Below the pieces are notes generated by a model. That model saw only the letters and a program-made list of their open reading frames with translations, ran no database searches and had not been told where the DNA came from. The position numbers were made by a program, and so were the translations under genes. Positions 3,580 to 25,179 of a stretch of DNA of 27,651 nucleotides are shown piece after piece (positions within the stretch are counted from its first letter, which is position 1; every line of letters begins with the position of its first letter). The DNA is from a virus. Lineage: Duplodnaviria > Caudoviricetes. The DNA lies in IMG/VR virus record IMGVR_UViG_3300032290_000065, positions 1 to 27,651 of that record; one strand, given 5' to 3'.

Positions 3580-3809
3580 TATGCTTCGGCAGCCTCTTCT
3601 TGTGCTTCCTTGATTTTGTCTGTAAGTTTATCTTCAACAAACTTGTATACACGCTCAAAAGACTGATCAACAGTCTCTCCATTGCGTGAACTATCAACTA
3701 CGCCAAGATCTAGCCTTAGTGATTGAAAGTTTCCCAGATTAAGTGTGTAACCTAGTGTTACGGATACTTTGGTTGGTTCATTTGTTACTACATAATTGCT
3801 GTCTGACAT
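3579..3809 (-). CDS. Small acidic hypothetical protein (start revised to MSDSNY, 76 aa)
   Basis: The ATG at 3809 has a GAAGGG SD and removes the overlap with the upstream gene; TAATG junction to the next gene. Confidence 0.75.
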   Translation of the reverse strand: MSDSNYVVTNEPTKVSVTLGYTLNLGNFQSLRLDLGVVDSSRNGETVDQSFERVYKFVEDKLTDKIKEAQEEAAEA

Positions 3810-6787: not shown

Positions 6788-7347
6788 TAATTTCCTCCAG
6801 TATACATTGTATCACCAAAAGTATTTCCACTTGTTAGTATTTGCACTTCGGCTTGTTCGCCTTCTTTTACATTAATAAGATTTATTATTAGGTCCCCGCT
6901 AATTGGGTCAACATAGATTGACTTACAGTTTGGAACTTTTGTCCATTTAGTCTTGTCTGGATTTACAACTCCTGGAGATATCTCTACTGGAATTATGTCA
7001 TATCCATTTCCACACACTGGAAGACGATCTAGAATTGAAATAGATAAAGATTTAAAGAATGAGTCTGATGACTGTAACCTTAAAATATTGTTTGGGTTAT
7101 ACTGCAGGTATAGTTCTGTTAGATTTTTTATAGGGTTATAGATTACCTTTTGTCCATTTACTAAGTCGTGCCTGGATATTGTTGCAAGTTCTTGACCACC
7201 GATGTCTTCAAATATAAGGTCAGTCATTATTTGCGAAGAAATTGGCTCAAATGATTTCAAGATTAAATCTGGAGTTGCAATTTTTACGGCATTGCTAGTC
7301 GATGACTGGGTTGGATCTGGAAGGTTTGCAACCGCACTTGTTGTCAT
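6787..7347 (-). CDS. Probable minor tail protein
   Basis: 186 aa; TAATG-coupled on both sides within the tail gene run. Confidence 0.6.
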   Translation of the reverse strand: MTTSAVANLPDPTQSSTSNAVKIATPDLILKSFEPISSQIMTDLIFEDIGGQELATISRHDLVNGQKVIYNPIKNLTELYLQYNPNNILRLQSSDSFFKSLSISILDRLPVCGNGYDIIPVEISPGVVNPDKTKWTKVPNCKSIYVDPISGDLIINLINVKEGEQAEVQILTSGNTFGDTMYTGGN

Positions 7348-10300: not shown

Positions 10301-11735
10301 CCTGGTCGTGATCAAAAAGATTGATACTTCCATTTGATGCTATGAGTTGTCCAACTGGCAATCCAGATAGACCTAGGTCTGATGCACTTTTATTAATAGA
10401 ATAGTCTAGCGTTTTGTCTGAAACATTTAAAGTAAGTCTTGGAGAAATTTCAATAAGATCAAATGTTGAGTCTTTCTTGTTCATTGTTTCTACAACAATT
10501 CTTATCCCACTAATATATTCAAATTCTCTAAACTGTTTCTTTTTGTCTAGGGTTCTAACAAACACATCTGGAGATGTTGCATTTGTTACAAAGTTTGTTA
10601 GTCTATCAACTGTTTCATCCTGTATGTACCATCCGTACTTGGGAGTTAAAAGAATATACTCTTCACCATTCCATATATGATATACACCAAGATCTGTGCT
10701 ATTAGGTTTAATCAAGTATGCATATCCAATAACAGACTGCTCTGGAAGAAGTGCGTCGGTAGTATATGTTTCTGCTAAAACAAAACTTGCTCTCCACTCT
10801 TCTGGAATAATTAAGCCGTAGGCAATTTCAACATACCCGTCACTTTTAATTATGGGGGAGCCGTCTTTTCTTGTAATTGATGGATCAAAAGACATAACAT
10901 TTTCCCAATTGTTATCTTTTAAAAATTGAATTTTCCATTTACTTGGAGTCTTTTGATTTAGTTCTCCATAAAACGGATCTGCATAAGAGCCAGTAGAGGA
11001 AGAGAATGGCCCTAAGTTTTCTGTTCCTGTATGAGTTTGCATTTTAACTACAACCCTGTTAGTTGGAATCTTTTCTTTATAAACAACAAAAGGAACTGCA
11101 TCTTCTATCGCATACTGTGATCCTGTGGACTTTGACGCAATTCCATACTCAGACCAAGTTTCGACAGTACCTAACTTTTGTTTTCCATTTTTATCTGTAA
11201 ATATTTGAGACGGTCCATAAGAAACTGTATTATCATTATATGTATACTTATATGTTCCCTCTCCTCTGTATGATGTCCAGTACTTAAACTTATCGTTTTT
11301 ATCTGGCATATAATATCTTGGTCTATCTGCCATTACAAGGTTAGGGTGGTGTAGTTTCCCGCCCTCAAAAAATATTGCTTTATTTATTCCAGACCTTGGC
11401 CTAAACTGTCCGAAGCAATCCTCTAAAGAATATAGGGTTTGCAGTTTTTCTTTTTTGGTCAATAGCGTTGTTGGTATATTGTTATTGTCAAATGTTCCAT
11501 CAACAAGGACATCTGCATCTGTTGCTCCTGTATAGAAATTTCCTGTATCACTAACATCAAAACTATTTGGCAAAGAGGCATATACTGATGATGACTGGGT
11601 TGGTCTGTATCTATAGTTTCCTATTTGTTTTATGTTTGTTGGAATATTCATATTCCATTCAGCAATTATAGTTGACTTATTTCTTATTGTAGGAGATGTC
11701 TCTAAGAAATTTTGTAAGTCTTTATCTTCAAACAT
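7347..11735 (-). CDS. Large tail hub / central tail-tip (Tal-like) protein (start revised to MFEDKD, 1462 aa)
   Basis: Second gene after the TMP; hub-like segments LQDLAVSTQTAMFFDEYNNF and C-terminal PTIQLGDIVTLDY; GAGG SD and TAATG overlap at 11735. Confidence 0.7.
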   Translation of the reverse strand: MFEDKDLQNFLETSPTIRNKSTIIAEWNMNIPTNIKQIGNYRYRPTQSSSVYASLPNSFDVSDTGNFYTGATDADVLVDGTFDNNNIPTTLLTKKEKLQTLYSLEDCFGQFRPRSGINKAIFFEGGKLHHPNLVMADRPRYYMPDKNDKFKYWTSYRGEGTYKYTYNDNTVSYGPSQIFTDKNGKQKLGTVETWSEYGIASKSTGSQYAIEDAVPFVVYKEKIPTNRVVVKMQTHTGTENLGPFSSSTGSYADPFYGELNQKTPSKWKIQFLKDNNWENVMSFDPSITRKDGSPIIKSDGYVEIAYGLIIPEEWRASFVLAETYTTDALLPEQSVIGYAYLIKPNSTDLGVYHIWNGEEYILLTPKYGWYIQDETVDRLTNFVTNATSPDVFVRTLDKKKQFREFEYISGIRIVVETMNKKDSTFDLIEISPRLTLNVSDKTLDYSINKSASDLGLSGLPVGQLIASNGSINLFDHDQAFNTNNTNSIIAKYISRHVQFKFYEVILDVAGWDYWVPIKTLYSDSFPKQDLMTKRVSINLRDLYWYLESVTAPEILMTEVSLSSAVSLLLDHIGFSNYTFKRVANETEIVIPYFFVSPENSVAQVLQDLAVSTQTAMFFDEYNNFVMMSKNYIMPTAKERPTNFALSGTKDFLESREIKNKTNKPKLANVISVSTQENAVYNDGSINYSTRYIERSIGTIREASLLDNERYYIYKPALLWEVAPSQNTKSINNQVGTQSSYILSAIPLNSNLSEAVPEVKNNVVINNTFSLGEAVYSITRYNGYFYSQGEIIKYDAVQYNVPGFGNVWITSVEDYQYYFAKLPFNSKIYPTGLVRIYSEPKYFEQDGVVKLQNGAVAKHGRGQFGTKVVAHNAGVADYWKSDDNVRGCYMSSEYLFGKNLTAPTTTVASAGKLTLSGVSSDALSKTSSRNGIIKNFMSTSFIGEVSTTTAVQTGTLQASALCLTGPNFTTKEKPRDFISYVYKSLEANKYKHFGTRMRIVGKIENNEDRGQTSNGSTVMYVVKGSTPDKDIKVTGGSGGISFMLNPTTNVGYYFEISALGLGNLSKNERESVSNVFFYKIKSENGKAIPVKLWEGLGEITVDDGKYTGKARLFAEENPTVYDLAAEYEEIGKVRRFYLYLNGKLIKTVDDLDPLPVYSNVALFSRGSSRVMFENVYALCNNYSQNTTFSLGAPVNSVFGDSDISAHESFRKYALSGLIQDTYLSGIGTSEAPKYNIYFEEFGSIMREAATFNFKYDKAFPALTAKISPTFTDMKGYVVSGFRAGSYGAEFIIFNATDRALILDSDSGNYLKVQGITFTQQSDNRLSVDDYFDKNSITSNPQFVADKLISNPYKFKQDYQDIKLSRMTYGKKDFSLSTPYIQSYDEANSLMKWLIEKIAKPRRSVGVKIFAIPTIQLGDIVTLDYEENGINMVSSPLSRFVVYNIDYTKNVEGPDMTVFLSEVV

Positions 11736-12370
11736 TATACCTCTTCCAAGGTAACCGAGACATTCCAATAATCAAACTTAGTTCCTCTTTTTTCTACAGA
11801 GTATGAAAAACTTGATATAAACATTTCTACAATTTGGTTATACTGCTGTAGGTGATCATATGGAGACTCAGTTCCTTTAAAAATTCCTTTTCTATCATAT
11901 GCAAGGAACACCCAGAAAGAACCTTTGTGACCGTCATACCATTCAAGCATGTCCGCTCCACCTGCTCCGCCATCTGAAGTATATGAGGTATGAGGAGATA
12001 GTCCTGTTGCTGGATTAAAGCCTGGAACCTCTGCGTGAGACCTTGATGGAATCATATTCCAACTAGTGCTAATCTTCATCTTATCTGCAGTATGGTAGGA
12101 TCTCATACGGCCATTGATCATTCTCTCCCGTTTTTCAATACGCTCATCTGAAAAATCTAAAGGGGTTCTGTTATCATCTGTAAGAATTAGGAATTGGTTT
12201 GCTAGGCTTTGGTCTACTTCAAGAGTTGCATCTGCCCCAACCTCTAGGCCGTAAGGAATATACAAACTATTAATCAGGGTACCAGAGTTTTCAGACCACA
12301 GCATTGCACTAGGTCTGTTATATCTTTTACGCTTTTGCATGTAGTTAAAACTTGGATTAATTGCGGACAT
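11735..12370 (-). CDS. Probable distal tail protein (Dit-like)
   Basis: Immediately after the TMP; 211 aa with RMINGRMR and a C-terminal WNVSVTLEEV strand, typical of Dit/gpM-like proteins. Confidence 0.65.
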   Translation of the reverse strand: MSAINPSFNYMQKRKRYNRPSAMLWSENSGTLINSLYIPYGLEVGADATLEVDQSLANQFLILTDDNRTPLDFSDERIEKRERMINGRMRSYHTADKMKISTSWNMIPSRSHAEVPGFNPATGLSPHTSYTSDGGAGGADMLEWYDGHKGSFWVFLAYDRKGIFKGTESPYDHLQQYNQIVEMFISSFSYSVEKRGTKFDYWNVSVTLEEV

Positions 12371-15300
12371 TTGCGTTTATCCCCCTAACTCTTCTGTCGT
12401 TTACTGTTCTTATTTGTGACATTACTGTCTGTGCAATTTCGTTTGGATTAGCATCCGTCTTTGCATTGACTGTTAATGTATATGTATTATTATACACTGC
12501 CCCGCCGATGTCTGCGCCACTATTGATTTTCTTCATATTATCTACACCATAAGAATCTACAGCATACTTACTCATAACAAATTCTCCTGGGGTTAACATT
12601 GCAGGAACGGTATCTGTACCAATTGAGAACCCTCCCTGAGCAAAATACTTTGGAACAATTCCTCCTGATGAAAGTGCTAGTGGCATATATTTACTGCCAC
12701 CACGATTACCAATTGGTTTAGGCTCTGGCTTAGGTTCTAGTTTAGGCTCTGGTGTTGCCCATATAATACTTCCAAGAGCAGCAGCGCCTCCGCCTATGGC
12801 AAGGGCTGCAGCCTTTATTGGATTCATTGGTGGTGCCAATTCTTTAATTGTGCCAGGTACTAATACTGGAGGTGCTGTTAGTCCTGGGGGTGTTGGCTGA
12901 CCTGGAAGTAGTCGAGCCCAAACCTCTGCTTTTACTTTTAAATCTTCTGCTACCCTTGCAGATGCTTGTCCTGTGACCTTTATGCTTTCTAAAATTAATT
13001 CTGCGTTCTTTTTAAGTTCTTCACCCTTATATCCTGCACCTTTTAACATTTTGAGAATATCTTTTTTGCTAAATGCCTCTAGAATATCTACTCCTTTACC
13101 AATGCCTGCAGAAAGTGCTGAAGTTATTGCTGTCTCTTTCCAAACATTTTTACTAGCGCCAGTAAATGTGAGTAATGGCTTACTAAGTTCACTTGCTAAG
13201 GCTTCAACGGTTGGTGCTTGTGGCATATAATCTAAACTTCTTCCAAAGTCTATAAGTCCTGGAACAAGTGTTTCTGGATTAAGCGTTACGTTTCCGTCAT
13301 GAGTATCAACAAACCTCATCCCAGACATAATTGCAGATCTGAGTCCACTTGCTGCAGCCATGGCTGGATCAGATACTCTGTCAAATTCTTGACCAAGAGT
13401 ACCCGCTTTAGCAGTTAATGCCTTCAGTGTTTGTGCTCCTTGTGCTGCAACATCTGGGCTAAAGACTCCATCTGCTACCTCGGCCCCTTTTCGAAATACT
13501 GGAACATTTGCTGGAGCAATAAGGCCTGATGCTCTGGCAAATATGCTACCAAACATTTCTCTTTGAACGTCCGCAAATTCTAGACCAGTTTTATAGAATC
13601 CAGGAACTCCATCTAAGACTGCTCTGAATGTTGAGTTTATGCCACCCTGAACACCATCTGAACCTTGTTGTCTAGCAAGCGCTTGTCCAATTTCAAGTGC
13701 CTTTTCAGAAATTTGCCCTGGAAGTTTAAATCCTACAGCCTTCTGGCCCAAACTAGGAAATATAGTTGTTAATTTATCTTTTGCTTTCTTAACAAGTGAT
13801 CCTGCAACAGAGGCATAATATCCTGCATTTTTTGCTGGTCTTTGCTGAACACGCTGTAACTCAAATTCTTTTGCTGAAAGTGCCAGCAGGTTATCCCAAA
13901 GAGGATGGCCTTCTTCAATTGCATTCTTGGGGTTATAAGGAATGTTGTGAGTACCCTTAAGCATCCACGAACCGTAGGGAGTTTCTTTAACATATCCTGC
14001 AGCATTCATCTTTTCTATCAGTGGAACCATTGCTTTTTCTACTTTTTTAATTTCAACAGTATCGTTAATAAGCCCCATTCTTGCCTTACCTCTTTGAAGA
14101 CCATCTATAAAACTATTTTTTATATTATAGTGTGGGTTTGCTGCAGGCAAGAAAAGTTCTTTTATTGGTTTAATAACCGCAGATCCTGCTGACTTGATTG
14201 ATCCAAACATATCATTTGAAACACGAGACACAGGTCCAGCAATTGATTTACTAAACATTGGACCAAGTTTTGACAAAAGGCCTCCAGTTTCTTTTATTAA
14301 TGGTGCTGCGGCTTTTGTTCCTTCTTTACCTAATTTACCAATTCCAAGGAAGTTTAGTGGAAAAAATACACCATTAAACTTATCTTCTGTAGTTGCTTGT
14401 CCAGTTATAGTTTTTAAGAAACCAGTCAAGCCAAGAACATCTGCTTCCATCCAGGATGTTAGAGGAGATTTATTAAGTGTTGCTTGTGTTTCTTTATCAG
14501 TTTCTGCTCTAGACCTAGCATATCTAGCAAGCCAAGAATTGTTGTTAGCCCCTGTTTTAGAAGGATCTCTGTCGCCCTTACCAAAGAACTTGCCCAACCC
14601 ACTAGAAGAAGCGGTTGTTTCAGGAGCATTTCTTCCATGTCTATGTCCTACTGGTCCACCTTTATGATAGTATCCGACATTCATTGCGTCAAGATTCTTA
14701 ACACCATACTTATTCACTGCATCTTTTCTTAAGATATATTCTCCTGGTGTAAGCATTGCTGGGACGGTATCAGTTCCCTTTGCATACAGTCCAGACTCAA
14801 AAGCGCTTGGGACAACTCCTCCAGAAGCCATCATCAGCAGTCCCCCGTAGCCACCAAAGCCACCGCCACGGCCACGACCACGGAGCATTCTTGCTTTTTC
14901 TAATTCTTCAAGAAGAGCCTTGTCTGCTAGAGCCTTATCTGCTGCAACCTTATCTGCTGCAATCTTATCTGCTGCAATCTTATCATCTGCAATTTTTTTG
15001 TCTGCTGCTGCTTTATCTTCTGCTGCTTTCTTTTCTCTTGCTGCCTTATCTGCTGGAGTTTCTCCTTCAAAACCTTTTTCTGGAACAAAGGCTTGGCCAT
15101 TAATAAATGCCCCATCTTTGCCACCAACCTCTGCCTTATATCCTGCAATTAAATTTGCCTGAGTACTTATTGCAAGACCCATAGAATCTACAAATGCTGC
15201 GCTCTTAATAAGTGCAAGATCTACCTGGTTTTTAATTGCTTCCCAAGCATCTCTTGTTCTTCCAAGGACAGTAATTCCTTCTATATCCTTATCTAATTGG

Positions 15301-18300
15301 ACCTGTCTTAGGCGAATAAATTCTTGCGCTGGCTCGATCTTTTCTTCTTCGATCTTAAAGACTTCATCCTGAAGATTTTTAATTTCTTCTTCAAGTTGTT
15401 TTCTAGTCTTAAGTTTTCCATCAGTTTTATCAAGTCCTGTTAGGCTACCTAACTCATATTGTCTAGACTGCTCTATAGCATCCCTTTGCTTTGCTACAGC
15501 ATCGGCTGCTGCCTGAGCGCTCATTTCTTGTGCAGCCCTTGCTGCTGCTGCAATGTCTCCAGATGTTAATGCTTCAGCCAGAGACAGTTGTCCCTTTTGC
15601 TGATTAGAGATGGCAGAGTTAGCCTTTTCTATTTCATCTAAGGCTTCAATTCTTTTGTCGTACTTATCGTTAATCTTTTGTTCTTGATCTTCGATGCCCT
15701 TAAGCGCTGCTTCTTTGTCATCTACCTTATACTGAATTGCTGAAATTGCATTTTGTGCATCAGTAACGATCTTGTCTTTTTCTTTTGTATCTACCTTAAA
15801 CTTTAACTGAAGTTCAGTTTCTTGAACATCAAAAGACTCCATTGCATCGCCAAAACCTTTATCAAACATATCCTGCATAAACCCAACTGTGCTTTTTAAC
15901 TGAGCCAGCCTTGTATCAAAATCACTTATTAAAGTATTTAAATCAGCCTGTGCAGTTTTAATAACTTCTTTATCTGCACCTTTCTTAATTAAATTATTAA
16001 CTTTTGACTGCTGAGTAGCAATCACATTTTCCATTGCTTTTAGGTTTTCATCAGAATCAATAGCAAAAGCAGTTGCTGGATCAAACTTCTTTTTAATTCT
16101 TGCCTCTTGAACTCGGTCTTTTTTAAATTTATCAATGTCTGTTCCTACTCCTTTAACCGCTGCTGATTTAAGTTGTGCTGCAGTTAATATTTTATAGTTT
16201 GTTGCTAACTTAGCAACTGACTTTGAGTTCTTCTCCATAGCAATTGCTTGGGCAAGTCCAGCATTTTCAACAATTGAGTAAGCATCTGCAACTGGAATTC
16301 CTATAGAAGCCAACTTAGCAAATGCTATTGCCTGATCTTCAATAACATTAGTTTCTGCTTCTGTCTTTGAGTTAAAGTCTCCCATGGCAATAGAGTTTAG
16401 GGCTTCTTGAATATTTTTAGCATCCTTCTTTAGCCCAATAATGTTTCCCTTATTGTCAAACTTGAACAAAGACTTTTTCTTTTCTTCGTAGACCTTTGGA
16501 TCCATACCAACTATAAGTTCAATAAAGTCTTCACTTCCCCCTATTTTTCTTAGATCATTTTCTATACCGCTGAAAGCATCAAGGGTCTTCTTGCCTCCAA
16601 ACAGGCCATCTAGAGCCTTACGAGAGGCACTCCAGCCCTCTGTGACCTTAATCTGGTTCTTACGTACATCTCTTAGTTTCTTTACTAGGTCGTCCAGTGG
16701 TGAGGACTGTGTCTTGCCCCCGCTGCCATCTGGGGTCGTTGGTGGAACTATTGATGTATCTACTCCAACACCCTCAGTTACAGCCTTAAAACCTTGCTCT
16801 TCTCTGTAGAGAGCAAGTTGTGTTGCAATAGGAAGAGAAGCATAACTTAATCCTCCATAATTCTTTTTACCAATCATCGTGGTTGGAGATTTTTGCCAAT
16901 CAATAAAGTCATCGCTGGCAGCAAGAACTGGGTCTTCAACATATATAGTTGATGCAATAGTTTGAACATATGTTCTTTTCTCAGCATCTGTTTTTAAACT
17001 GTTAAAGTATACTTCATCAAATGCCTCGCTATTTTTAAGTTCTGGAATAAGTTCATAAACTTGTTGCACCTTGATATCCTTCATAGATTCAATACCATCA
17101 AGGGCTGCATTTAGTTTCGCATATGCGTCTTTGCTTTCTGTAGTGTCAGCGCTGTAATAACTAACCAGAATATCTGATGGAATAACTTTGTTTGCGTTAT
17201 TTAATTTAATTATATTCTTTGTAAAATCAAGAGCATCCGAGTCTTTTTCAAATGCGTTAACTTTTGTAATAAACTCTGTTTGTACTGTTTTATTTATATC
17301 TCCCTTAGAGTCAAGAATAACTCCTGCTGCTACGCCAATTGATTCAGAAGTTGCACCACTAAACTGGGTTATAATATTCATCATCATTGGAGCAATATCT
17401 TGATTCTCTGCTGCTAGACCTAGCAGAGTTCTAAATACTGATGGAGGAATATCTCCACTTGCCATCTTTGCTTGAATTAAATATTCTTGACCACTTGTAA
17501 TAAGGCCAGAACTTCGCAAATCCCCTGCTTGTTGATTAACAGAATCTAGGTATGCTAACTGATTAGGATCGTTTTTATACTTTGCAGTTGTTGCTTTTTT
17601 CATTCCGCTCATCATTGACTCTTGAAGGCTACCAGCACCGTCGTATTGCGATACTACATCTTCTTGTAGCAATGCCTGTGCAGCAGTTAAATCATTTCTT
17701 TTTTCAATATACTTTCCTTGCAATTCATTGGCTTCATTTATTTTTCCTTGTAGCCTTAACTCTTCAACCTTTTTTTGATAATACATATCAAAGGAATCAA
17801 GCATTTGTTTATTTTGCTCCATTGCAATTTTAGCATCTACTGCTGCCGTGGCACCTAGCACTGCTGCTTGTTTTACATATTTCTTTGATGTAAAGTATCC
17901 AAACGCTGCTCCTACTGCTGCGCCGATGCCACCACCGATTGCTGCTCCTATAGGCCCACCAATAAATGTTCCAATACCAGCACCTGCTGCTGCGCCACCT
18001 AAAGCAGATGCTCCGATGCCTGCAATTTGCATAGTCTTTTTTCCAGCAAGTTTCCTGACCATGTTCCCACCAACAAAACCATCACCACCACTTGCAGCAA
18101 GAGCGGCACTACTTTTCATATTCTTAGAATTTTTAGCAATCATATCAAGTCTTACCTGAAGAGGATTTTTATCTAAATCTTGTCCATTAGGGCCAAGTAT
18201 TTGCTCTATTTGAGCAATTACTTTAATACCCATAGTTATATCGCCTGCTTGTCTTCCAGCATTCATTGCTAAACTTTTTGCTTGATTCATATCCATTGCG

Positions 18301-21300
18301 CCAGACATAATTGAGTTTGTTAACTGATTTGACAAATCTCCAATTGCTTGCCCACCTTTTCCTATGGCATTTTGTTCTGAAAGTCTTTTTGTAATGGCCT
18401 TACCTTCTTCTGTCTGAACAAAGGCTTCTCCATATGTTGTTTTACCAGTTGCCGAAGCAGTCATGTTGAAAGAATTTTTTCTTTTAAGATCCATTTGCTC
18501 TGATGCTGTTACTTTATTACCAAACTTTGCTATACTATTTATTGCAGAAGTAGATCCTTTAAACTTCTCTCCCTGTTCCAGAATTTCGTCTGCTGCTTTA
18601 TCAAATGCCATTCTTAAAGCAGCCATTGCTCCTACAGTTGCTAATAATCCAATTGCAACTGCAGCCATAGGACTCTTTAGCATTGGAAGAACCATTGAAA
18701 GACCCATTAAAGGCATCATTAGTTTTGTAGATATTTCTCCAACTTTTCCTGGTGCCATAGAACCAATCATTGTTGCACCTGCTGCAATGCCAACTCCTGC
18801 GGTTACGCCACCACCTTTACCTTTAAATTTTGCTACTCCTGCTTGAGCCTTTGCTCTGAGTTTTTCCCTTCGACTTGGCTCATTGGCTGCAGCAGAGGCT
18901 GCTGCTTTTTCACTAATAACTTTTTGCTGATATGCTACCTGCTCAGCAATCTGGCTCTTAGTGTATCCTTTTCTGCGTAAAGATTTTTCAAATGGAGTTA
19001 TAGCAGTTCCAGGTTCAGCACCATACAATTTAGTTTTTGATGCTCTTGCCATTGATTGTGTTTTTCTTTGTTGTCTTGCTTCTTGTCTTTCAATTTTTTG
19101 TAGTCTTCTTCTTACAGACTTTGCGTCAGCATCCATCGGTCCCGTGCCATATAGAGCAGTTCTGGATGCTGCTGCTGCAGACTGAGATAGTGTTGTTCCA
19201 ATATTAGCGCCAACTGCTCTGGCCTCTGGGATAGACCCTTTTGCTCCTGCTACTACCGCACTTGCAGTTGTAGACATTGCATCTGGAGCATTTGATCTTC
19301 CACGAATTACAGGTCTCTGACGAACTGCTGGAGCAAGTTCTGCTGGAGCAAGTCTTGAATCCTTTGGACTGCCCGTGTCTGATTTAAATGCACCATTATT
19401 TGGTTCTGTTGGTATTGGCTTTGTCTTTCCCTTTTCATCTTCAAGAACTTCATCGGGCTTTACTAAAATCATGCTGTGCTTTTGATGTAGTCTTCTCCAG
19501 TCAACAGATAGTCCTACCTTAAGTCTTTCTAGCATTTTTAAATATTCAGGCTTTAAAGGATCTGAGTTAGACATTTTTGCAACATAAGGCTCCATTAGTT
19601 TAATCTGTCTACTAATTTCTTTTTTCATTTCCCTATCATATTGATCTGGTGTTAGGTTTAGAGCAATGTCTTTGGTTGCATTAGCAAACCAGTTTGGAGA
19701 ATTTTGTGGTTTTCCTTTACTTTTTTCTGGAATGCCCTTTAGGTTTTCTTCTGCCATCTGTTCTAGAGATGGCATATTCTTTGAAAATTCTTTATCTAAA
19801 GCACCAGATGCTCTATCAAAGACACCCATGGTGCCTCCGTCTGTCATTACATTTCCTCCGAGATTACCTGCCTTAAGGTCTTTGTCTCCACGAAGGCTTG
19901 CTGCAACCAACTGCTTAAAATATTCTGCTTGAGTAAATTTCTTTGGAATATTGTTTGGATCAAACTTTTTATCAAAGGGAGACTCTAAAACAATTATCTT
20001 TCTTTTACCTTCTGGATCTGTAGGATCAATCATTGTCCTAACTTTTTGTACTGGAGCATCAAGTCCTTGAACTTTTCTAGCAAAGTCTGTTGCTCTTTGT
20101 TCTGCCAAAGCATCCAACTCGCTCATCATTGGTTTTACAAAAACTCTCTTGCCATCTGGCTTTTCGTAAACACCCCCGATTTCACGAACATCAAAACTTC
20201 TTCCACTGCTTCCTGCTATTTGTTTTCCAAAATCTGTAGGCTTCTTCTTTCCAGTTTTAGTGGTTTCTGCAACTCTTGATATCTCTTTTAATCTTTCTTG
20301 CTGGCTTTGGGCTTTTTCCATATTCTCTGCAATTAATTCTGGTGCTCTGACTGGTGCACCTGCAGGTGTCTGACTTATTCCTGGTGCGGTTCCTGCTCCA
20401 AGGCGATTCATGTTTGTTGTTGTTGGCTCAGCAAGCGGTATTCCCATATAGGTTCCATCGTGTAGTGTAACGGTAGAACTTCTAGTTACAATCTTGTCGG
20501 TACGACCCGCCCCTGTTCCTGGTCCCGATTCAATAGTAAAAGACTTGATGTAGGTTTTTCCAGTGTCAGGATCAATAGTAGACGCTGCATGCTGTAGAAT
20601 TTCTGCACTTCTTGCTGGTGTGTTTCCTAAACCTTTACCCATGTTAAACAGGTAGTCTGTTGCATAAAGTCTTTGAGCCTTTTTTAATCCTTCATCATTA
20701 GGGCTTACAACTTTTGGAATTTCTTCTTTAAATATTCTATCAACTATTCCGTCTGTAATCATTGGGCCCTTGACATCTGCAAATGATCTTAAGAATGCAT
20801 CGTCTATCGCTTGTGCCTGGACTGGGGTCATTCCTGAAAGATGCCATTTACCTGCACCTCTGCGTTTCCACTCATCAATAAACTCTTGCTTTGAAACGCC
20901 CACTGTAGGCATTTGTTTGTTCATCCACTCAGGCCACTCAAATATTAGCCCATGCTTTGTTGTTGTAACTGCCTCCATGCCCTGAGACTTAAAGATCTGG
21001 GACATTGTTATGAGTTTGTTTCTTTGATCAGGAGTCATATGAGGGTTTGAATCAATGACCTCTTGAATACTCTTTGGAGTACTCTTTCCTCCAACATGTG
21101 TTTTGTTAGTTACGTTATTGTCTTTTACAATTTCTTTAGGTACTCCAACAGGTTGTACATCGCCTTCTCCAGTATTAAATCCTTGAACAGTTTGGCCTGC
21201 AATCATTCTTGCAATTACTGGCTTGTTGCCTGGGTCTTGTGCAGCACCTGCTGGAATAACTGCTTCTCCAGGAGTGAGCATTGCTGGAACTGTGTCTTGA

Positions 21301-23327
21301 TTTCCTGATCCTGGAACTCTTCTTGTTCCTGTAGAAAACTTCTTAGGTCCTGGCATCCTCTTGCCAGCAGGTGGTCCAGTAAATCCCATTTGTGCTGCGA
21401 TTGCTCTTCTATATGCATTTGCTAAGTTATTAACTGCTGTTGCTTCAGATGTAAAGGTTTGATTTAATTTTTGATGGACTTGATCAAGAGATGCTGCTAC
21501 TGCTGAGGCTTCTAACTGTTCCTTAGTTAGATAGTTTGTCTGCTCCCCCAAAACTTTGCTAGAATTTCCTGTTTTGTTATACATAGACTTCATATTTGCA
21601 AATAGTTTAATTATGTTAGCAAAAGCATTTGCAACTAGTCCAATTGTCATAAGCAGGACTGGTCCTATTCCTGCAACTGCAACAGTAAAGATAGTTAAGA
21701 ATTTTTTACTACCGTCTCCTAGCCCATTAAACTTTTCAAGAATCTTTCCAACAAACTCAACAATAGGTGTTAGCGCTTTTAAGAACTGTTCTCCAACTGG
21801 AGCAATAGCCAACTTAAGATCTTCCATTGACTTTTTAAATTTATAGGTTGTTGTGTTTTGGACCTTGTCTAATTCTCTCTGTGATAAGATTGCAAGTTCT
21901 TCTGTGGTTGCTTGCGTTAGTTGAAGCACTCTATTTGCTTGTGTACCCTGCGCCGTTACATTCTGAAATAATGTAGAAAGTCTTGAGAATTGGAACTTAC
22001 CAAACAACTGTTCAATTGCTCTTGCACGGTTGAGTGGATCTAGTGTATCAAGTGCTTGTGAAAAGCCAACAACAGTTGCCTTAATGTCTCCAGCATTTCC
22101 TTCAACAATTCCTTTAATGTTAATTCCAAGATCAGCAAGAAATGCACTTGCTTTTGCAGATGGATTAATTAAAGATGCAAGACCAGACTTAAGTGCGTTG
22201 GCGCCTTCTGATGCATTAATTCCACCTTCTTTCATTGCTGTAAGGAAGAATGCTAAATCTTCTACATCTCCACCTAGTTGCTGAACAACTGGGCCAGCCT
22301 TTGGAATTGCAATTGTTAAATCTTCAATTGATACAACAGTCTGGTTTTCAACTGCGTTAAGGAAGTCAATCTTTTTAGCAAGATCTTCTGTTGCTACTCC
22401 AAATGCATTAGTTACTGAAATAGTTGTTTCTAATGCTTGCTCTTGCTCTACTCCACCAAGAACGGCAAGTCTGGTTGCTTGTGCAACCTGAGCCATAAGT
22501 GCTGCTCCTTGTTTACCCATTGCTGCTGCATCTGCAGCCATCTTCATTGTATCTTCTACAGCAACTCCATACTTTGTATATTCTTTTGCAAGAGTCTGTA
22601 TCTGCTTAATCATTGCATCAGTTTCTTCTTGCGTTGTAAACAGTTCTCCGTATACACGCTTGAACCTAATTGCCTGCTCTTCAAGTTTCATAAATGTCTT
22701 GGAAGCAGTTACTCCAAGCATTGCTAGAGGAACAGTGAAACCAACCATTAACTGGCGACCAGCCCACTGAGTATTCTTACCAAAGTTTAGAAGGTTGGTT
22801 GATCCTTGCTTTAATAATTGATTAAGTAGTTGCTGTCTTTGTGCTGCAATGGCTGTCTGTGTACCCAGATTTTTCATATCAAGGGTTAGAGGTCTTACTG
22901 CAATTGCTTGTAGAGCACCGTTTGCTCCACGACCCAACTTTATATATTGGGTTTGAATATCTTTTACACGCTCTCGTGCTACCTTGTTTATTGTCTCAAA
23001 TTCAGACTTAAATAGTCGGCCAAAGGTCTTTGTTGCTGCGCCAGTGTATCTAAAATATTCTCTAGATGTTAACTTGTTTCTTTCTAAAGAATCAGTAAAA
23101 TGCTCTGTGCTTGATGTTACTGATCGCATAGATGCCTGGAATTGTCCAGTAGCATTTATGCTGTTCATCAAGTTCTGTGCTTGATTTGCTGCCACCGCTG
23201 CTGCTGCGGTGCCAGACTTTGCCATTTGTGTATGGAAGGCTGATATTTGACGTTGCAGAAGTTTTAGACTTGCTAAAGCATCAGACGTATCAATATTTAC
23301 ATGAATATTGGATTCTACATCAGCCAT
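12357..23327 (-). CDS. Giant tape measure protein (TP901-family N-terminal domain) with embedded kinase-like cargo domains
   Basis: 3656 aa between the chaperones and Dit; TP901-type TMP block (LTAMKEGGINASEGANALKSGLASLINP, AIEQLFGK), several hydrophobic segments, long coiled coil, and a C-terminal NNTYTLTVNAKTDANPNEIAQTV cap; GAGGTG SD. Confidence 0.93.
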   Translation of the reverse strand: MADVESNIHVNIDTSDALASLKLLQRQISAFHTQMAKSGTAAAAVAANQAQNLMNSINATGQFQASMRSVTSSTEHFTDSLERNKLTSREYFRYTGAATKTFGRLFKSEFETINKVARERVKDIQTQYIKLGRGANGALQAIAVRPLTLDMKNLGTQTAIAAQRQQLLNQLLKQGSTNLLNFGKNTQWAGRQLMVGFTVPLAMLGVTASKTFMKLEEQAIRFKRVYGELFTTQEETDAMIKQIQTLAKEYTKYGVAVEDTMKMAADAAAMGKQGAALMAQVAQATRLAVLGGVEQEQALETTISVTNAFGVATEDLAKKIDFLNAVENQTVVSIEDLTIAIPKAGPVVQQLGGDVEDLAFFLTAMKEGGINASEGANALKSGLASLINPSAKASAFLADLGINIKGIVEGNAGDIKATVVGFSQALDTLDPLNRARAIEQLFGKFQFSRLSTLFQNVTAQGTQANRVLQLTQATTEELAILSQRELDKVQNTTTYKFKKSMEDLKLAIAPVGEQFLKALTPIVEFVGKILEKFNGLGDGSKKFLTIFTVAVAGIGPVLLMTIGLVANAFANIIKLFANMKSMYNKTGNSSKVLGEQTNYLTKEQLEASAVAASLDQVHQKLNQTFTSEATAVNNLANAYRRAIAAQMGFTGPPAGKRMPGPKKFSTGTRRVPGSGNQDTVPAMLTPGEAVIPAGAAQDPGNKPVIARMIAGQTVQGFNTGEGDVQPVGVPKEIVKDNNVTNKTHVGGKSTPKSIQEVIDSNPHMTPDQRNKLITMSQIFKSQGMEAVTTTKHGLIFEWPEWMNKQMPTVGVSKQEFIDEWKRRGAGKWHLSGMTPVQAQAIDDAFLRSFADVKGPMITDGIVDRIFKEEIPKVVSPNDEGLKKAQRLYATDYLFNMGKGLGNTPARSAEILQHAASTIDPDTGKTYIKSFTIESGPGTGAGRTDKIVTRSSTVTLHDGTYMGIPLAEPTTTNMNRLGAGTAPGISQTPAGAPVRAPELIAENMEKAQSQQERLKEISRVAETTKTGKKKPTDFGKQIAGSSGRSFDVREIGGVYEKPDGKRVFVKPMMSELDALAEQRATDFARKVQGLDAPVQKVRTMIDPTDPEGKRKIIVLESPFDKKFDPNNIPKKFTQAEYFKQLVAASLRGDKDLKAGNLGGNVMTDGGTMGVFDRASGALDKEFSKNMPSLEQMAEENLKGIPEKSKGKPQNSPNWFANATKDIALNLTPDQYDREMKKEISRQIKLMEPYVAKMSNSDPLKPEYLKMLERLKVGLSVDWRRLHQKHSMILVKPDEVLEDEKGKTKPIPTEPNNGAFKSDTGSPKDSRLAPAELAPAVRQRPVIRGRSNAPDAMSTTASAVVAGAKGSIPEARAVGANIGTTLSQSAAAASRTALYGTGPMDADAKSVRRRLQKIERQEARQQRKTQSMARASKTKLYGAEPGTAITPFEKSLRRKGYTKSQIAEQVAYQQKVISEKAAASAAANEPSRREKLRAKAQAGVAKFKGKGGGVTAGVGIAAGATMIGSMAPGKVGEISTKLMMPLMGLSMVLPMLKSPMAAVAIGLLATVGAMAALRMAFDKAADEILEQGEKFKGSTSAINSIAKFGNKVTASEQMDLKRKNSFNMTASATGKTTYGEAFVQTEEGKAITKRLSEQNAIGKGGQAIGDLSNQLTNSIMSGAMDMNQAKSLAMNAGRQAGDITMGIKVIAQIEQILGPNGQDLDKNPLQVRLDMIAKNSKNMKSSAALAASGGDGFVGGNMVRKLAGKKTMQIAGIGASALGGAAAGAGIGTFIGGPIGAAIGGGIGAAVGAAFGYFTSKKYVKQAAVLGATAAVDAKIAMEQNKQMLDSFDMYYQKKVEELRLQGKINEANELQGKYIEKRNDLTAAQALLQEDVVSQYDGAGSLQESMMSGMKKATTAKYKNDPNQLAYLDSVNQQAGDLRSSGLITSGQEYLIQAKMASGDIPPSVFRTLLGLAAENQDIAPMMMNIITQFSGATSESIGVAAGVILDSKGDINKTVQTEFITKVNAFEKDSDALDFTKNIIKLNNANKVIPSDILVSYYSADTTESKDAYAKLNAALDGIESMKDIKVQQVYELIPELKNSEAFDEVYFNSLKTDAEKRTYVQTIASTIYVEDPVLAASDDFIDWQKSPTTMIGKKNYGGLSYASLPIATQLALYREEQGFKAVTEGVGVDTSIVPPTTPDGSGGKTQSSPLDDLVKKLRDVRKNQIKVTEGWSASRKALDGLFGGKKTLDAFSGIENDLRKIGGSEDFIELIVGMDPKVYEEKKKSLFKFDNKGNIIGLKKDAKNIQEALNSIAMGDFNSKTEAETNVIEDQAIAFAKLASIGIPVADAYSIVENAGLAQAIAMEKNSKSVAKLATNYKILTAAQLKSAAVKGVGTDIDKFKKDRVQEARIKKKFDPATAFAIDSDENLKAMENVIATQQSKVNNLIKKGADKEVIKTAQADLNTLISDFDTRLAQLKSTVGFMQDMFDKGFGDAMESFDVQETELQLKFKVDTKEKDKIVTDAQNAISAIQYKVDDKEAALKGIEDQEQKINDKYDKRIEALDEIEKANSAISNQQKGQLSLAEALTSGDIAAAARAAQEMSAQAAADAVAKQRDAIEQSRQYELGSLTGLDKTDGKLKTRKQLEEEIKNLQDEVFKIEEEKIEPAQEFIRLRQVQLDKDIEGITVLGRTRDAWEAIKNQVDLALIKSAAFVDSMGLAISTQANLIAGYKAEVGGKDGAFINGQAFVPEKGFEGETPADKAAREKKAAEDKAAADKKIADDKIAADKIAADKVAADKALADKALLEELEKARMLRGRGRGGGFGGYGGLLMMASGGVVPSAFESGLYAKGTDTVPAMLTPGEYILRKDAVNKYGVKNLDAMNVGYYHKGGPVGHRHGRNAPETTASSSGLGKFFGKGDRDPSKTGANNNSWLARYARSRAETDKETQATLNKSPLTSWMEADVLGLTGFLKTITGQATTEDKFNGVFFPLNFLGIGKLGKEGTKAAAPLIKETGGLLSKLGPMFSKSIAGPVSRVSNDMFGSIKSAGSAVIKPIKELFLPAANPHYNIKNSFIDGLQRGKARMGLINDTVEIKKVEKAMVPLIEKMNAAGYVKETPYGSWMLKGTHNIPYNPKNAIEEGHPLWDNLLALSAKEFELQRVQQRPAKNAGYYASVAGSLVKKAKDKLTTIFPSLGQKAVGFKLPGQISEKALEIGQALARQQGSDGVQGGINSTFRAVLDGVPGFYKTGLEFADVQREMFGSIFARASGLIAPANVPVFRKGAEVADGVFSPDVAAQGAQTLKALTAKAGTLGQEFDRVSDPAMAAASGLRSAIMSGMRFVDTHDGNVTLNPETLVPGLIDFGRSLDYMPQAPTVEALASELSKPLLTFTGASKNVWKETAITSALSAGIGKGVDILEAFSKKDILKMLKGAGYKGEELKKNAELILESIKVTGQASARVAEDLKVKAEVWARLLPGQPTPPGLTAPPVLVPGTIKELAPPMNPIKAAALAIGGGAAALGSIIWATPEPKLEPKPEPKPIGNRGGSKYMPLALSSGGIVPKYFAQGGFSIGTDTVPAMLTPGEFVMSKYAVDSYGVDNMKKINSGADIGGAVYNNTYTLTVNAKTDANPNEIAQTVMSQIRTVNDRRVRGINANVRN
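12582..12614 (-). repeat. DTVPAMLTPGE motif copy 3 (aa 3572-3582)
   Basis: Exact 11-aa repeat, in context SSGGIVP...GTDTVPAMLTPGEFVMSKYAVDSYG. Confidence 0.95.
12920..13700 (-). other. HipA/PI3K-like atypical kinase domain 2 within the TMP (boundaries approximate)
   Basis: Gly loop GGINST, beta3 Lys (FYK, K3246), helix Glu (QREM), GLIAP, catalytic loop D3341-T-H-D-G-N, metal-binding IDFG (D3360). Confidence 0.8.
14739..14771 (-). repeat. DTVPAMLTPGE motif copy 2 (aa 2853-2863)
   Basis: Exact 11-aa repeat, in context ASGGVVP...GTDTVPAMLTPGEYILRKDAVNKYG. Confidence 0.95.
14919..15055 (-). repeat. 15-bp tandem repeat encoding (A/D)ADK(I/V/A) pentapeptides in the TMP
   Basis: Plus-strand unit CTTATCTGCTGCAA(C/T), about 3 near-perfect and several degenerate copies; protein ADKKIADDKIAADKIAADKVAADKALADK. 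Confidence 0.9.
19480..20240 (-). other. HipA/PI3K-like atypical kinase domain 1 within the TMP (boundaries approximate)
   Basis: GGVYEKPDGKRVFVK (K1065), ALAEQ helix Glu, GLDAP, catalytic loop GDK-D1150-L-K-A-G-N, then T-D1163-G-G in the DFG position. Confidence 0.7.
21264..21296 (-). repeat. DTVPAMLTPGE motif copy 1 (aa 678-688)
   Basis: Exact 11-aa repeat, in context FSTG...VPGSGNQDTVPAMLTPGEAVIP. Confidence 0.95.
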
Positions 23328-23345
23328 CCATTAACACCTCTTTAT

Positions 23346-23672
23346 TTAGTTATTTGCAAGGTTGCCGAGAAGTGATGCCTCAGAAAGTTTAATTCCTGAT
23401 GCCTCTTCGACAATCTTGTATACTGTTGGAAGGTCTAGATTTTCTTCTAGGGCTTCCTTGTCTTCTGCCAATTCTGGCTTGTATTGACGCATTGCTATTT
23501 GTACACAGTCGATAAGCAAGTCCATAGACTTTTCATTATCGTCTGCAACCTTTGCAATATCTTCAAACTTCTTCATAAAAGGACGAAGTAGTGAAATTTT
23601 AAGCGGTCTAACTTTGATCTTAGTACCATCAATTAGTGTTACTGTGTTTTCTTCTGTTGTGGCAGTTGCCAT
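23346..23672 (-). CDS. Tail assembly chaperone, short gpG-like form (start revised to MATATTEE, 108 aa)
   Basis: Small acidic protein between the major tail protein and the TMP; AGGAGG SD 5-6 nt before the ATG at 23672; homologous to the N-terminal half of the adjacent gene. Confidence 0.8.
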   Translation of the reverse strand: MATATTEENTVTLIDGTKIKVRPLKISLLRPFMKKFEDIAKVADDNEKSMDLLIDCVQIAMRQYKPELAEDKEALEENLDLPTVYKIVEEASGIKLSEASLLGNLANN

Positions 23673-23696
23673 TTGGCCCTCCTTATAAGGTTTAGT

Positions 23697-23707
23697 CAAT
23701 TATACCA
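23697..23707 (-). promoter_or_regulatory. Extended -10 promoter for the short chaperone and TMP
   Basis: TGGTATAATTG in the intergenic gap, 26 nt upstream of the ATG; no -35. Confidence 0.65.
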
Positions 23708-23727
23708 TAGCGCAGGCCTATTTTTGA

Positions 23728-24408
23728 TTAATCGTAAGACTCATAATCAAGACCCATGCCTATTCCAAAACCAGCCCTCTCAGCAGATGCGCCTTGTAAA
23801 GCCAGAATATCATTACCATCACCAGTTGCACCTTTGCTAAAGACTCTGGCCTTCATGTCTTCCCACGCATTACCGCTACCAGAATTTTTATCTAAATCTA
23901 CACCCTGCATAGCAGCAGTAAATTTTTTATCTCCATAGTCTAATTCTCTTTTTATTTTTAATGTGGCTGTTAGTTCTTGCATTGACATAGAGGATTCTAG
24001 TTGATCATAGTCTTTCCATATACCAATTAAAAAAACCTCTGATTCTAGTTTTGCTAAATCTAATGTATCCCAGGTTGATCCACTATCAACTGCTTGATCC
24101 TTAACAGGATCTTCTGACTTCTGGTTAATTTTAATCCCTGCTGCTATATCGATCACTTCATATATAGTTGGCAAATCAAGGCTATCCTCTAAGTCTTCTA
24201 TTGTTTTTATAGATGGGCAATATTGTTGCATTGCAATAAGAGCACAGTGAGCCAGAACAGATATTGATTCGTCATCTGTTTTTGCTTCCTTGATTGTTTC
24301 AAAGGTATCTAAAAATTCTCTTAAATATTTTATTTTCAATGGTGCAGCAACTACCACTCTATCATCTACTAATGATATTTTTTTTGTGTCATATATTCTT
24401 GTTGCCAT
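23728..24408 (-). CDS. Tail assembly chaperone, long gpGT-like form (start revised to MATRIY, 226 aa)
   Basis: N-terminal ~100 aa paralogous to the short chaperone; C-terminal W-x-D-Y-x-x-LESSMSMQEL block resembles gpT-type extensions; leaderless start. Confidence 0.75.
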   Translation of the reverse strand: MATRIYDTKKISLVDDRVVVAAPLKIKYLREFLDTFETIKEAKTDDESISVLAHCALIAMQQYCPSIKTIEDLEDSLDLPTIYEVIDIAAGIKINQKSEDPVKDQAVDSGSTWDTLDLAKLESEVFLIGIWKDYDQLESSMSMQELTATLKIKRELDYGDKKFTAAMQGVDLDKNSGSGNAWEDMKARVFSKGATGDGNDILALQGASAERAGFGIGMGLDYESYD

Positions 24409-24412
24409 TATA

Positions 24413-24423
24413 CAAGTATACCA
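24413..24423 (-). promoter_or_regulatory. Extended -10 promoter, leaderless
   Basis: TGGTATACT-TGTATA-ATG, no SD; abuts the U-tract of the upstream terminator. Confidence 0.65.
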
Positions 24424-24456
24424 AACAGAAAGGCCCAACCCCGAAGGATTGAGCCT
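24423..24456 (-). terminator. Intrinsic terminator after the major tail protein gene
   Basis: Minus strand AGGCTCAATCC-TTCG-GGGTTGGGCCT-TTCTGTTT: 11-bp stem (2 G-U pairs), C(UUCG)G tetraloop, U-rich tail, 16 nt after the stop. Confidence 0.88.
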
Positions 24457-24472
24457 CTCATATTAAGTTGTA

Positions 24473-25132
24473 TTATGCTGATGGTGCTGCGAGTGTGCGG
24501 TCTACGATCTTACCGTATGACGCATTGTCGTTTGGAAGAAGACGGAATGAAACTTCAAACATTGAAGCCTCGTCACGCTTTGCAGATACTGTTACATTCT
24601 CAATTGAGAGTGCACGGTATGCTACGTAGATTCTTTCCTTTGCAACTGCTGCAGAACCAGATCCTGGTCCTACTGCTACAATACCACGCTCTAGTGGAAC
24701 GTCGCCGATATCTCCTGCTGACATTCTTAGTGTCGATAGGTTAGATCCTGTTGCGATTTCCTCATTTGATGCAATTGCTACTAGAAGATTTTCTAGTGTT
24801 GCTTCTGCAAAAGATGTATTTAGATTAACTGTCATGCCTTGCTTGAATAAACGAGCAACGTCTAGAAGTTGATCTACTGCTACATCACCAAAGTCTGGCT
24901 GGAATGCGAGTTCCAAACCATTTGATGTGTAACCGATGTTTGTGAAATCATTGTCATTTGACAAAGTTTCCTTGTAGGATGTTGTTGATGCTGTCATTGC
25001 TGGAAGATCAGTGTTCGCTTGTGCGTCAGTGATGTTTCCTGTTGCGTCTACATATCCGATTGGGCCATCATGCGTAAATAATGCTGCTGCACCTACGATG
25101 ATGTTACTACTTGAACCACGGCTGTATGCCAT
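24473..25132 (-). CDS. Major tail (tube) protein (start revised to MAYSRG, 219 aa)
   Basis: NIIVGAA start and IGYTSNGLEL, VDQLLD, EATLENL and EVSFRLLP motifs typical of siphovirus tube proteins; GAGGTG SD; own promoter and terminator. Confidence 0.88.
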   Translation of the reverse strand: MAYSRGSSSNIIVGAAALFTHDGPIGYVDATGNITDAQANTDLPAMTASTTSYKETLSNDNDFTNIGYTSNGLELAFQPDFGDVAVDQLLDVARLFKQGMTVNLNTSFAEATLENLLVAIASNEEIATGSNLSTLRMSAGDIGDVPLERGIVAVGPGSGSAAVAKERIYVAYRALSIENVTVSAKRDEASMFEVSFRLLPNDNASYGKIVDRTLAAPSA

Positions 25133-25179
25133 ATATCTCACCTCTTTCATTTTATTAAAAGGGGGTTGTTTCCTCAGTA

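Follow-up and report, generated by a model that had tools for sequence, protein, structure and literature searches.

The tail tape measure protein (TMP) encoded in the 27,651-nucleotide stretch of viral DNA analyzed here (IMG/VR record IMGVR_UViG_3300032290_000065, hereafter the window) contains two cargo slots, the second of which is swapped exactly between near-identical phages, such that the likely kinase-like domain it holds in the window (K2) is an optional allele. The first slot carries a domain (K1) with a predicted two-lobed kinase fold. We tentatively suggest, as a possible wider reading, that the tail ruler may be a modular injection magazine of a large family of uncultured lake phages, whose hook-like repeats would serve as both cutting marks and recombination joints, whose kinases, acetyltransferases, ADP-ribosyltransferase-like modules, phosphatases and peptidases would be traded and injected before the genome to disarm the host, and whose K1 domain would represent a new virion-borne kinase family working where the DNA channel opens into the cytoplasm.

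The tape measure gene and its setting

The window spans phage genes for the tail and for replication, all on the minus strand. The preliminary description had assigned the 3656-aa ORF at 12357..23327 to a TMP, and this assignment is confirmed: a Pfam search places PF10145 at aa 245-442 (E 3e-24, above the cut-off), TMP families account for nine of the ten PHROG families listed (E 5e-98), and the gene follows the tail tube and chaperone-like genes and precedes the distal tail genes. The closest cultured TMPs, among the best 40 of 481 records, are those of Streptomyces cluster-BE phages (Stanwilliamsviridae), with 28-31% identity over the N-terminal 650 aa, and the BE phage Karimac has the same tail gene order as the window. 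This similarity, together with three K1-bearing contigs held in assemblies labelled Actinobacteria and three independent runs with matching contigs that are lake or freshwater metagenomes, makes an actinobacterium in fresh water the likely host. No RNA holder was found among the matches listed. The features of the locus, from the upstream genes to the end of the TMP, are as follows.

23346..25150, minus strand: tail tube gene (24473-25150) and two chaperone-like genes upstream of the TMP (PF25681, E 1e-4; phrog_10504 and phrog_10474; Karimac synteny)
12357..23327, minus strand: TMP gene, 3656 aa (ORF; PF10145; PHROG TMP families; BE-phage TMP similarity)
21363..23327, minus strand: N-terminal conserved scaffold, aa 1-655, including the hydrophobic segment aa 540-577 (67-100% identity in 80 IMG/VR loci; hydropathy)
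21195..21359, minus strand: repeat 1, a hook-like module, aa ~657-711, which opens slot 1 (counterpart in relatives; profile matches to the JBD30 and PDB 8zdo TMPs)
20373..21125, minus strand: third cargo domain, aa ~735-985, in which H, N, W, W, D and D are invariant (alignment)
19458..20270, minus strand: K1, predicted atypical protein-kinase-like domain, aa 1020-1290 (model fold; invariant catalytic residues; dN/dS)
18600..18809, minus strand: hydrophobic cluster aa 1507-1576, preceded by a basic stretch, which closes slot 1 (hydropathy)
14823..18599, minus strand: middle scaffold with a glycine zipper at aa 1774-1814 (PF13488, E 2.6e-5, just under the cut-off)
14619..14822, minus strand: repeat 2 and a short HKGGPVGHRHGRNAP joint, aa ~2836-2903 (swap breakpoint 14617/14618)
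12667..14617, minus strand: slot 2 cassette, aa 2904-3553, comprising a leader, K2 and a hydrophobic tail (non-homologous in contig L001 between near-identical flanks)
12948..13730, minus strand: K2, likely kinase-like domain, aa 3200-3460 (motif set; weak kinase matches of homologues)
12513..12668, minus strand: repeat 3, aa ~3554-3605, which closes slot 2 (repeat match; swap boundary)
12357..12512, minus strand: conserved TMP C-terminus, overlapping the next tail gene (11735-12370)

Upstream of the TMP, the ORF at 23728-24438 (minus strand; region 23346-24438) fuses the phrog_10504 and phrog_10474 families in a single reading frame, and another phrog_10504 copy comes after it at 23346-23699 (minus strand), at a place where Karimac has two separate short genes. 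This arrangement is possibly a fixed chaperone fusion with a duplicate that replaces a frameshift.

A hook-like repeat bounds the cargo slots

Two blocks of the TMP, at about aa 690-1500 and 2865-3570, had been described as non-ruler sequence, and both are real, with limits now refined by three repeats to aa ~712-1505 for slot 1 and aa 2904-3553 for slot 2. The repeat spans ~55 aa, contains DTVPAMLTPGE and is present in three copies, at aa 678, 2853 and 3572, each of which opens or closes a cargo slot. All 59 complete relatives have one copy at aa 640-700 and another at most 160 aa from the end, and the short HKGGPVGHRHGRNAP joint that follows repeat 2 also separates stacked cassettes in relatives. 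Hydropathy analysis places hydrophobic segments at aa 540-577, 1507-1576, 1768-1813 and 3503-3526, the first two of which flank slot 1, and most relatives retain the middle scaffold, with 22-99% identity.

A profile of 41 diverse repeat copies matches the mycobacteriophage TMP of PDB 8zdo twice (E 3.6e-16) and JBD30 TMP residues 1013-1063 (E 3e-5), and the best PDB row for the C-terminal copy is a weak match to lambda gpH 730-784 (E 0.43). In the JBD30 TMP, residues 1022-1066 are a predicted hook directly before a cut proposed at 1066, which the authors offer as speculation, and the available text likens this hook to the T5 hook left behind once the C-terminal domain departs (PMC11445458). The T5 TMP cut is reported to detach the muralytic domain from the remainder (bioRxiv 2022.09.20.507954) and lambda gpH to be cleaved near residue 710 (PMC12617516), with both cleavages placed during tail morphogenesis in the accessible parts of these two sources. 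Taken together, the profile matches and the known or proposed cuts indicate that the repeat is a widespread TMP module located at or near processing sites and triplicated here. No protease was identified in the window TMP, which has no HExxH and in whose repeats the His seen in the lambda copy is missing.

The hook-like repeat also matches large-cyanophage proteins that carry no TMP annotation (hypothetical, transmembrane and endolysin; records H41, H57, H65 and H66). Just upstream of repeat 2 lies a low-complexity AADK-rich run (aa ~2757-2805; window 14913-15059, minus strand). As for family size, P0024 reaches at least 4435 aa and L088 exceeds 3823 aa with four repeats; in contig L118 the TMP occupies two frames (ORFs 5492-10549 and 10483-14286) and in L030 it ends at 1228 aa, which may reflect sequence errors or real splits.

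Slot 2 is an exchangeable cassette

Over 14618-24713 contig L001 shares 99.1% identity with the window, and over 11408-12666 it shares 98.7%; between these flanks 1981 unrelated bases replace window 12667-14617. One breakpoint immediately follows the HKGGPVGHRHGRNAP joint of repeat 2, and the other coincides with the beginning of repeat 3. An independent lake or freshwater contig from another study has the same breakpoints, with 12666 joined to 14618 and 1981 letters between them, and in a third study an 11.5-kb contig has the K2 allele at the same place. A misassembly was also considered as the origin of the K2 block and is rejected by the presence of K2 in that 11.5-kb contig. The module in L001 has a conserved His and a YGPGxYFA motif, which we take to be that of PARP-type ADP-ribosyltransferases (ARTs), and its profile returned PARP-family chains in ten of ten PDB rows at non-significant E values of 0.5-0.8. 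The C-terminal slot occurs in only three of the 59 complete nearest relatives (L001, L073 and L074) and is absent from the remaining 56, a count that leaves out L066 and L072, in which slot 1 is displaced owing to short length.

The window allele, K2, contains the motif K3246, E3257, D3341-x-H-x-G-N3346 and D3360-F-G, within which K3246, E3257, D3341, H3343, N3346, D3360 and G3362 are invariant in all eight aligned K2 sequences, including a kinase-like cassette from L199 and L205 that was recruited by iterative search. Homologues were found in two database proteins and in contigs L087, L088 and L138. An exhaustive K2 profile search returned nine proteins, counting the window's own protein and a repetitive false match (P0030); among the other seven, PF10145 is present in four, including P0027, and P0022 and P0026 are C-terminal TMP-like pieces. 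K2 was present in none of the 80 nearest relatives, gave no match in the first scan of viral contigs and returned nothing usable from the ESM Atlas; a first metagenome pattern scan also had no matches. In Pfam, sub-threshold APH, ABC1 and PI3/PI4-kinase matches (E 4e-4 to 0.1) fall on the catalytic loop of the homologues, and a K2 profile search of the PDB has an ABC1 kinase as its top match (E 0.02). The structure model built from six sequences has a pLDDT of 37.5, and dN/dS is about 0.4-0.56, higher than that of K1. By motif set and homologue matches, K2 is likely a kinase.

K2 is only distantly related to K1, with no BLAST similarity between the two, and a recent duplication was rejected on the grounds that profile matches span the Lys-Glu region only (E 0.35 and 0.006). 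Between K2 and repeat 3 lies a hydrophobic stretch (aa 3503-3526; window 12750-12821, minus strand) that accompanies the K2 cassette in homologues and could be a membrane anchor of the released K2 domain.

K1 has a predicted kinase fold

K1 displays the motif G1042, K1065, E1076, D1150-x-K-x-x-N1155 and D1163, in which, by motif order, K1065 is presumably the beta3 Lys, E1076 the alphaC Glu, D1150 and N1155 the catalytic Asp and Asn, and D1163 the metal-binding Asp. In an alignment of the window with 30 of 34 non-identical relatives, found via the scaffold and not the motif, G1042, K1065, E1076, R1146, D1148, D1150, N1155, D1163 and G1165 show no variation in any of the 31 sequences, down to 33% identity. 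The same residues are likewise invariant in all 87 unique ORFs (69 distinct domains) of a larger set collected in part with catalytic-motif patterns; at position 1152, where Lys is typical of Ser/Thr kinases, these 87 have K in 52 cases, G in 25 and H in 6. Pairwise dN/dS of about 0.05-0.19 across eight pairs indicates strong purifying selection on K1. The earlier observation of an atypical kinase motif set in each block is thus upheld by both the K1 and the K2 alignments. Every one of the 87 ORFs places K1 within a TMP scaffold, and K1 relatives are encoded in 305 IMG/VR stretches.

The structure model of K1 (pLDDT 87, pTM 0.87) was compared with 48,161 chains (VIA), and all 50 listed rows are kinase-fold proteins. 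The best match is CotH (Z 10.8, rmsd 4.3, 220 aligned), followed by MavQ (Z 10.1), CtkA (8.9), PI4KII (8.9), HipA (8.5) and PI3K (8.5), with Fam20C also listed, such that the neighbours, at rmsd 4-5 A and 5-16% identity, include both protein kinases (CotH, CtkA, HipA, Fam20C) and lipid kinases (MavQ, PI4KII, PI3K). The rows listed by Foldseek are kinases only, the best at E 2.9e-3, with no match at E<=0.001. Helices at 169-266, C-terminal to the catalytic core, give the model a helical C-lobe.

At the sequence level, K1, K2 and other segments gave no Pfam match at E<=10, including to the HipA, CotH and PI3/PI4-kinase families, none of which was found among the 31 K1 members either. The K1 profile had no kinase-domain match among PDB sequences, the ESM Atlas placed K1 in unnamed clusters only (0.97), and neither K1 nor K2 matched cultured phages. 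The model supports K1 as a two-lobed kinase fold with a conserved catalytic set and, by fold, a predicted member of the protein-kinase-like superfamily. Of the two kinase-like domains that had been anticipated, K1 has its fold borne out by its model, and K2 is kinase-like by motif and homologues only.

Cargo varies among relatives

Of 59 complete TMPs, 32 contain K1, and K1-positive TMPs range from 2637 to 3666 aa versus 1844 to 2897 aa for K1-negative TMPs. On a quick tree of 61 scaffold rows, the history of K1 requires at least six gains or losses, four of them forced by strongly supported branches. More distant relatives have several C-terminal modules stacked with the same joints between them, and about 1500 IMG/VR stretches matched the scaffold patterns.

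A module scan of 63 representatives of 141 segments and of 14 C-terminal arrays identified, above the Pfam cut-off, HAD phosphatases in L162, L166 and L168 and one GNAT in L182, and Pfam also found OmpA domains in L196, L199 and L205. With the PARP-motif module of L001 and a further kinase elsewhere, these modules substantiate the earlier expectation that the slots hold other modules in homologous TMPs. HExxH motifs occur in slot 2 of relatives, with peptidase matches that are sub-threshold only. Modules with an ART motif had no Pfam match, either to PF03496 or to another ART family, the module with an R-S-E motif had no relevant match, and the GNAT family profile had no significant PDB match. 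The PARP-, ART- and R-S-E-type names therefore rest on motifs.

The OmpA peptidoglycan-binding domain is the first module past the repeat in the L196, L199 and L205 arrays (E about 5e-17) and in P0029 (E 1e-15). A HAD phosphatase shares the slot with K1 in L162, L164, L166, L167, L168 and L171, which places a kinase and a phosphatase in one TMP.

The third cargo domain of the window, at aa 735-985, has no Pfam or PDB assignment; it is replaced by other domains in some relatives and has about 40 related ORFs among the loci analysed. Neither it nor the repeats that bound the slots had been noticed in the preliminary description. Its candidacy as an HNH-type nuclease was not supported by follow-up searches. 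In L036:12155-13087, L146:4588-5670 and their kin, slot 1 has another domain instead, whose invariant H, W and NN resemble a nuclease motif, for which the PDB gave no support.

Proposed delivery of the cargo and its alternatives

We lean, by a little, towards a mechanism in which the tail-packed cargo leaves with the ruler at infection and the kinases phosphorylate host proteins during DNA entry. The cargo would be mostly unfolded inside the tube and would refold once ejected, much as the TMP-fused RNA polymerase of P23-45 rides in a full-size TMP. Slot 1, lying between two membrane segments with their basic faces inward, would make K1 a cytoplasmic loop at the channel mouth with ATP at hand. 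Slot 2, lying behind a hook-like module at the place where T5 releases its C-terminal enzyme, would allow K2 to be cut free and to come out first. The repeats would act as recombination joints for module trading among phages, probably driven by host defences.

TMP ejection and channel formation are described as established for T5, lambda and JBD30 in the available texts (bioRxiv 2022.09.20.507954; PMC12617516; PMC11445458). The P23-45 TMP with its RNA polymerase is reported to be full-size in virions, and pre-early genes are transcribed by the fused polymerase (PMC10770324), which indicates that an enzyme can ride in the ruler and act inside the cell. The earlier statement that known TMP cargo is mostly peptidoglycan-degrading therefore needs amending, as it overlooks this cytoplasm-acting enzyme (PMC10770324). 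The P23-45 precedent makes delivery more plausible and the concept less new. Delivery is further favoured by the GNAT (L182) and HAD phosphatases (L162, L166 and L168), which need cytoplasmic cofactors or substrates. Among 53 TMPs, the slot-1 side is the more basic one in 46 for the first hydrophobic segment and in 40 for the second, a bias that is small (mean +0.5 to +2.3) in sequences related to each other and that is a weak sign of slot 1 being a cytoplasmic loop, with K1 near ATP. Under the T5/JBD30 model, in contrast, a C-terminal cassette would exit first, outside the cytoplasmic membrane, which counts against a cytoplasmic K2. The OmpA modules in slot 2 of relatives fit an envelope role and suggest that part of the cargo works in the wall.

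Without both slots, the TMP has about 2095 aa versus 2099 aa for the TMP of the BE phage CeilingFan, whose tail is given as both 346 nm and 365 nm within one paper (PMC13191466). The resulting ratio of 0.165-0.174 nm per residue predicts a tail of 600-640 nm if the whole protein counts and of about 350 nm for the 2095-aa scaffold. The dilemma posed earlier by a tail of ~550 nm is weak, given this 600-640 nm prediction and a P23-45 virion that keeps its full-size 5,002-aa TMP (PMC10770324).

It is also conceivable, if unlikely, that the cargo is delivered and that the kinases act instead on membrane lipids, envelope precursors or small molecules at the entry site, easing channel formation or DNA uptake. 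In the structural comparison MavQ, PI4KII and PI3K (Z 10.1, 8.9 and 8.5) rank beside CotH, CtkA and HipA (10.8, 8.9 and 8.5), K2-family homologues have weak APH, ABC1 and PI3/PI4-kinase matches, K1 would be membrane-tethered, relatives have OmpA modules in slot 2, and phosphatidylinositol is present in actinobacterial membranes, all of which would suit such substrates. The Z-scores, however, cannot separate substrates, the exchange of K2 for an unrelated module is more in line with conflict than with a fixed step of entry, and the co-occurring GNAT, ART-motif and HAD modules correspond to the protein-modifying set described for polyvalent proteins (PMC5512222). We give rather little credence to the domains acting in the cell that produces the phage or on the virion itself, either cut off at the repeats during tail assembly or working from unassembled TMP, and modifying host or phage proteins late in infection. 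While the cleavage of lambda and T5 TMPs in tail morphogenesis (PMC12617516; bioRxiv 2022.09.20.507954), the closeness of the slot-free length to that of the BE-phage TMP and the difficulty of fitting folded 260-aa domains into the tail lumen all speak for it, the cleaved C-terminal pieces of the lambda and T5 TMPs are reported to remain in the virion (PMC12617516; bioRxiv 2022.09.20.507954) and the P23-45 enzyme to stay in the full-size TMP (PMC10770324). Moreover, a late cytoplasmic enzyme needs no TMP fusion, yet K1 is fused in 87 of 87 ORFs.

Eukaryotic grazers that swallow infected cells or virions are highly improbable targets. A "Trojan horse" role was proposed for VIP2-like ARTs of 24 freshwater phages (PMC6802176), and the structural neighbours of K1 include several effector or eukaryotic kinases; the TMP, however, is ejected into the bacterial envelope, bacterial targets fit the OmpA, HAD and GNAT modules, and the ART-motif modules here match neither PF03496 nor any ART family. 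Least credible of all is that the blocks are captured sequence that merely lengthens the ruler, with enzyme activity being irrelevant. The greater length of K1-positive TMPs and the 56 of 59 complete relatives without slot 2 accord with such a filler, whereas the invariance of catalytic residues down to 33% identity under strong purifying selection, and the repeated filling of slots by intact enzyme-type domains, argue for function. If delivery against host proteins is right, long-tailed phages would bring in pre-made enzymes for counter-defence or takeover through the TMP, much as heads do with T4 Alt or MuF fusions. Function can be tested directly with natural allele pairs in which a single cassette differs, and the repeat marks natural TMP insertion points and bears on how and where TMPs are cleaved.

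Comparison with known systems

Our literature search, which covered few subscription papers, found no description of kinase cargo or swappable cassettes in TMPs. A Lake Biwa preprint reports TMP diversification between close actinoviral genomes, with no domain analysis in its available text (10.1101/655167), and the accessible part of a report on freshwater phage ARTs does not mention TMPs (PMC6802176).

The window TMP shares with polymorphic toxin systems a variable C-terminal domain exchanged by recombination. An adjacent immunity gene is typical of such systems. None is found directly downstream of the TMP, whose stop overlaps the next tail gene (11735-12370) and leaves no room for one, and the TMP therefore does not strictly qualify as a polymorphic toxin system. 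The MuF-VIP2 fusions of Microbacterium phages are similar in that a variable effector domain is fused to a virion protein and its presence differs among close relatives; in contrast to these fusions as described in the available text, the carrier here is the tail ruler and not a head protein, and is without an adjacent immunity gene (PMC7302621).

K1 resembles CotH, MavQ, CtkA, PI4KII, HipA and Fam20C in fold and in the arrangement of K, E, D-x-x-x-x-N and D, but has no sequence-level membership in these families and is a compact 270-aa domain embedded in a TMP. The same hook-like module is found in T5 pb2, lambda gpH, JBD30 gp46 and the Streptomyces BE-phage TMP, and an enzyme lies downstream of it in T5 and in Karimac (an M23 peptidase domain). 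The window TMP differs from these proteins in having three copies of the module, two slots and predicted cofactor-dependent modifying enzymes in place of wall hydrolases.

The giant TMP of Thermus phage P23-45, gp96 (5,002 aa), likewise carries an enzyme that acts inside the cell, is found in virions as a full-size TMP and is missing its fusion in some relatives (PMC10770324). Its cargo, however, is a single N-terminal enzyme serving phage transcription (PMC10770324), whereas the window TMP has several internal and C-terminal predicted modifying enzymes, held in slots bounded by repeats and exchanged among near-identical phages.

A further parallel is with the polyvalent proteins, which are described as large multi-enzyme proteins among virion genes, containing kinases, GNATs, ARTs and peptidases in cassette-like variation and proposed to be injected with the DNA (Iyer et al. 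2017, PMC5512222). Tape measure proteins have no occurrence in the main text of that paper as available (PMC5512222). Two differences are evident: the polyvalent kinase clade lost the whole C-terminal subdomain (PMC5512222), whereas K1 keeps a helical C-lobe in its model, and the MPTase metallopeptidase is pervasive but not obligatory in polyvalent proteins (PMC5512222), with no HExxH in the window TMP. The window TMP nevertheless combines unrelated effector-type domains in one polypeptide (K1, K2 and the aa 735-985 domain, with GNAT, HAD, OmpA and kinase modules in relatives) and is encoded among late virion genes. The proposal of a polyvalent carrier made in the preliminary description is in keeping with this architecture, and the domain content supports the view that the window TMP works like a polyvalent protein, as a multi-effector carrier.
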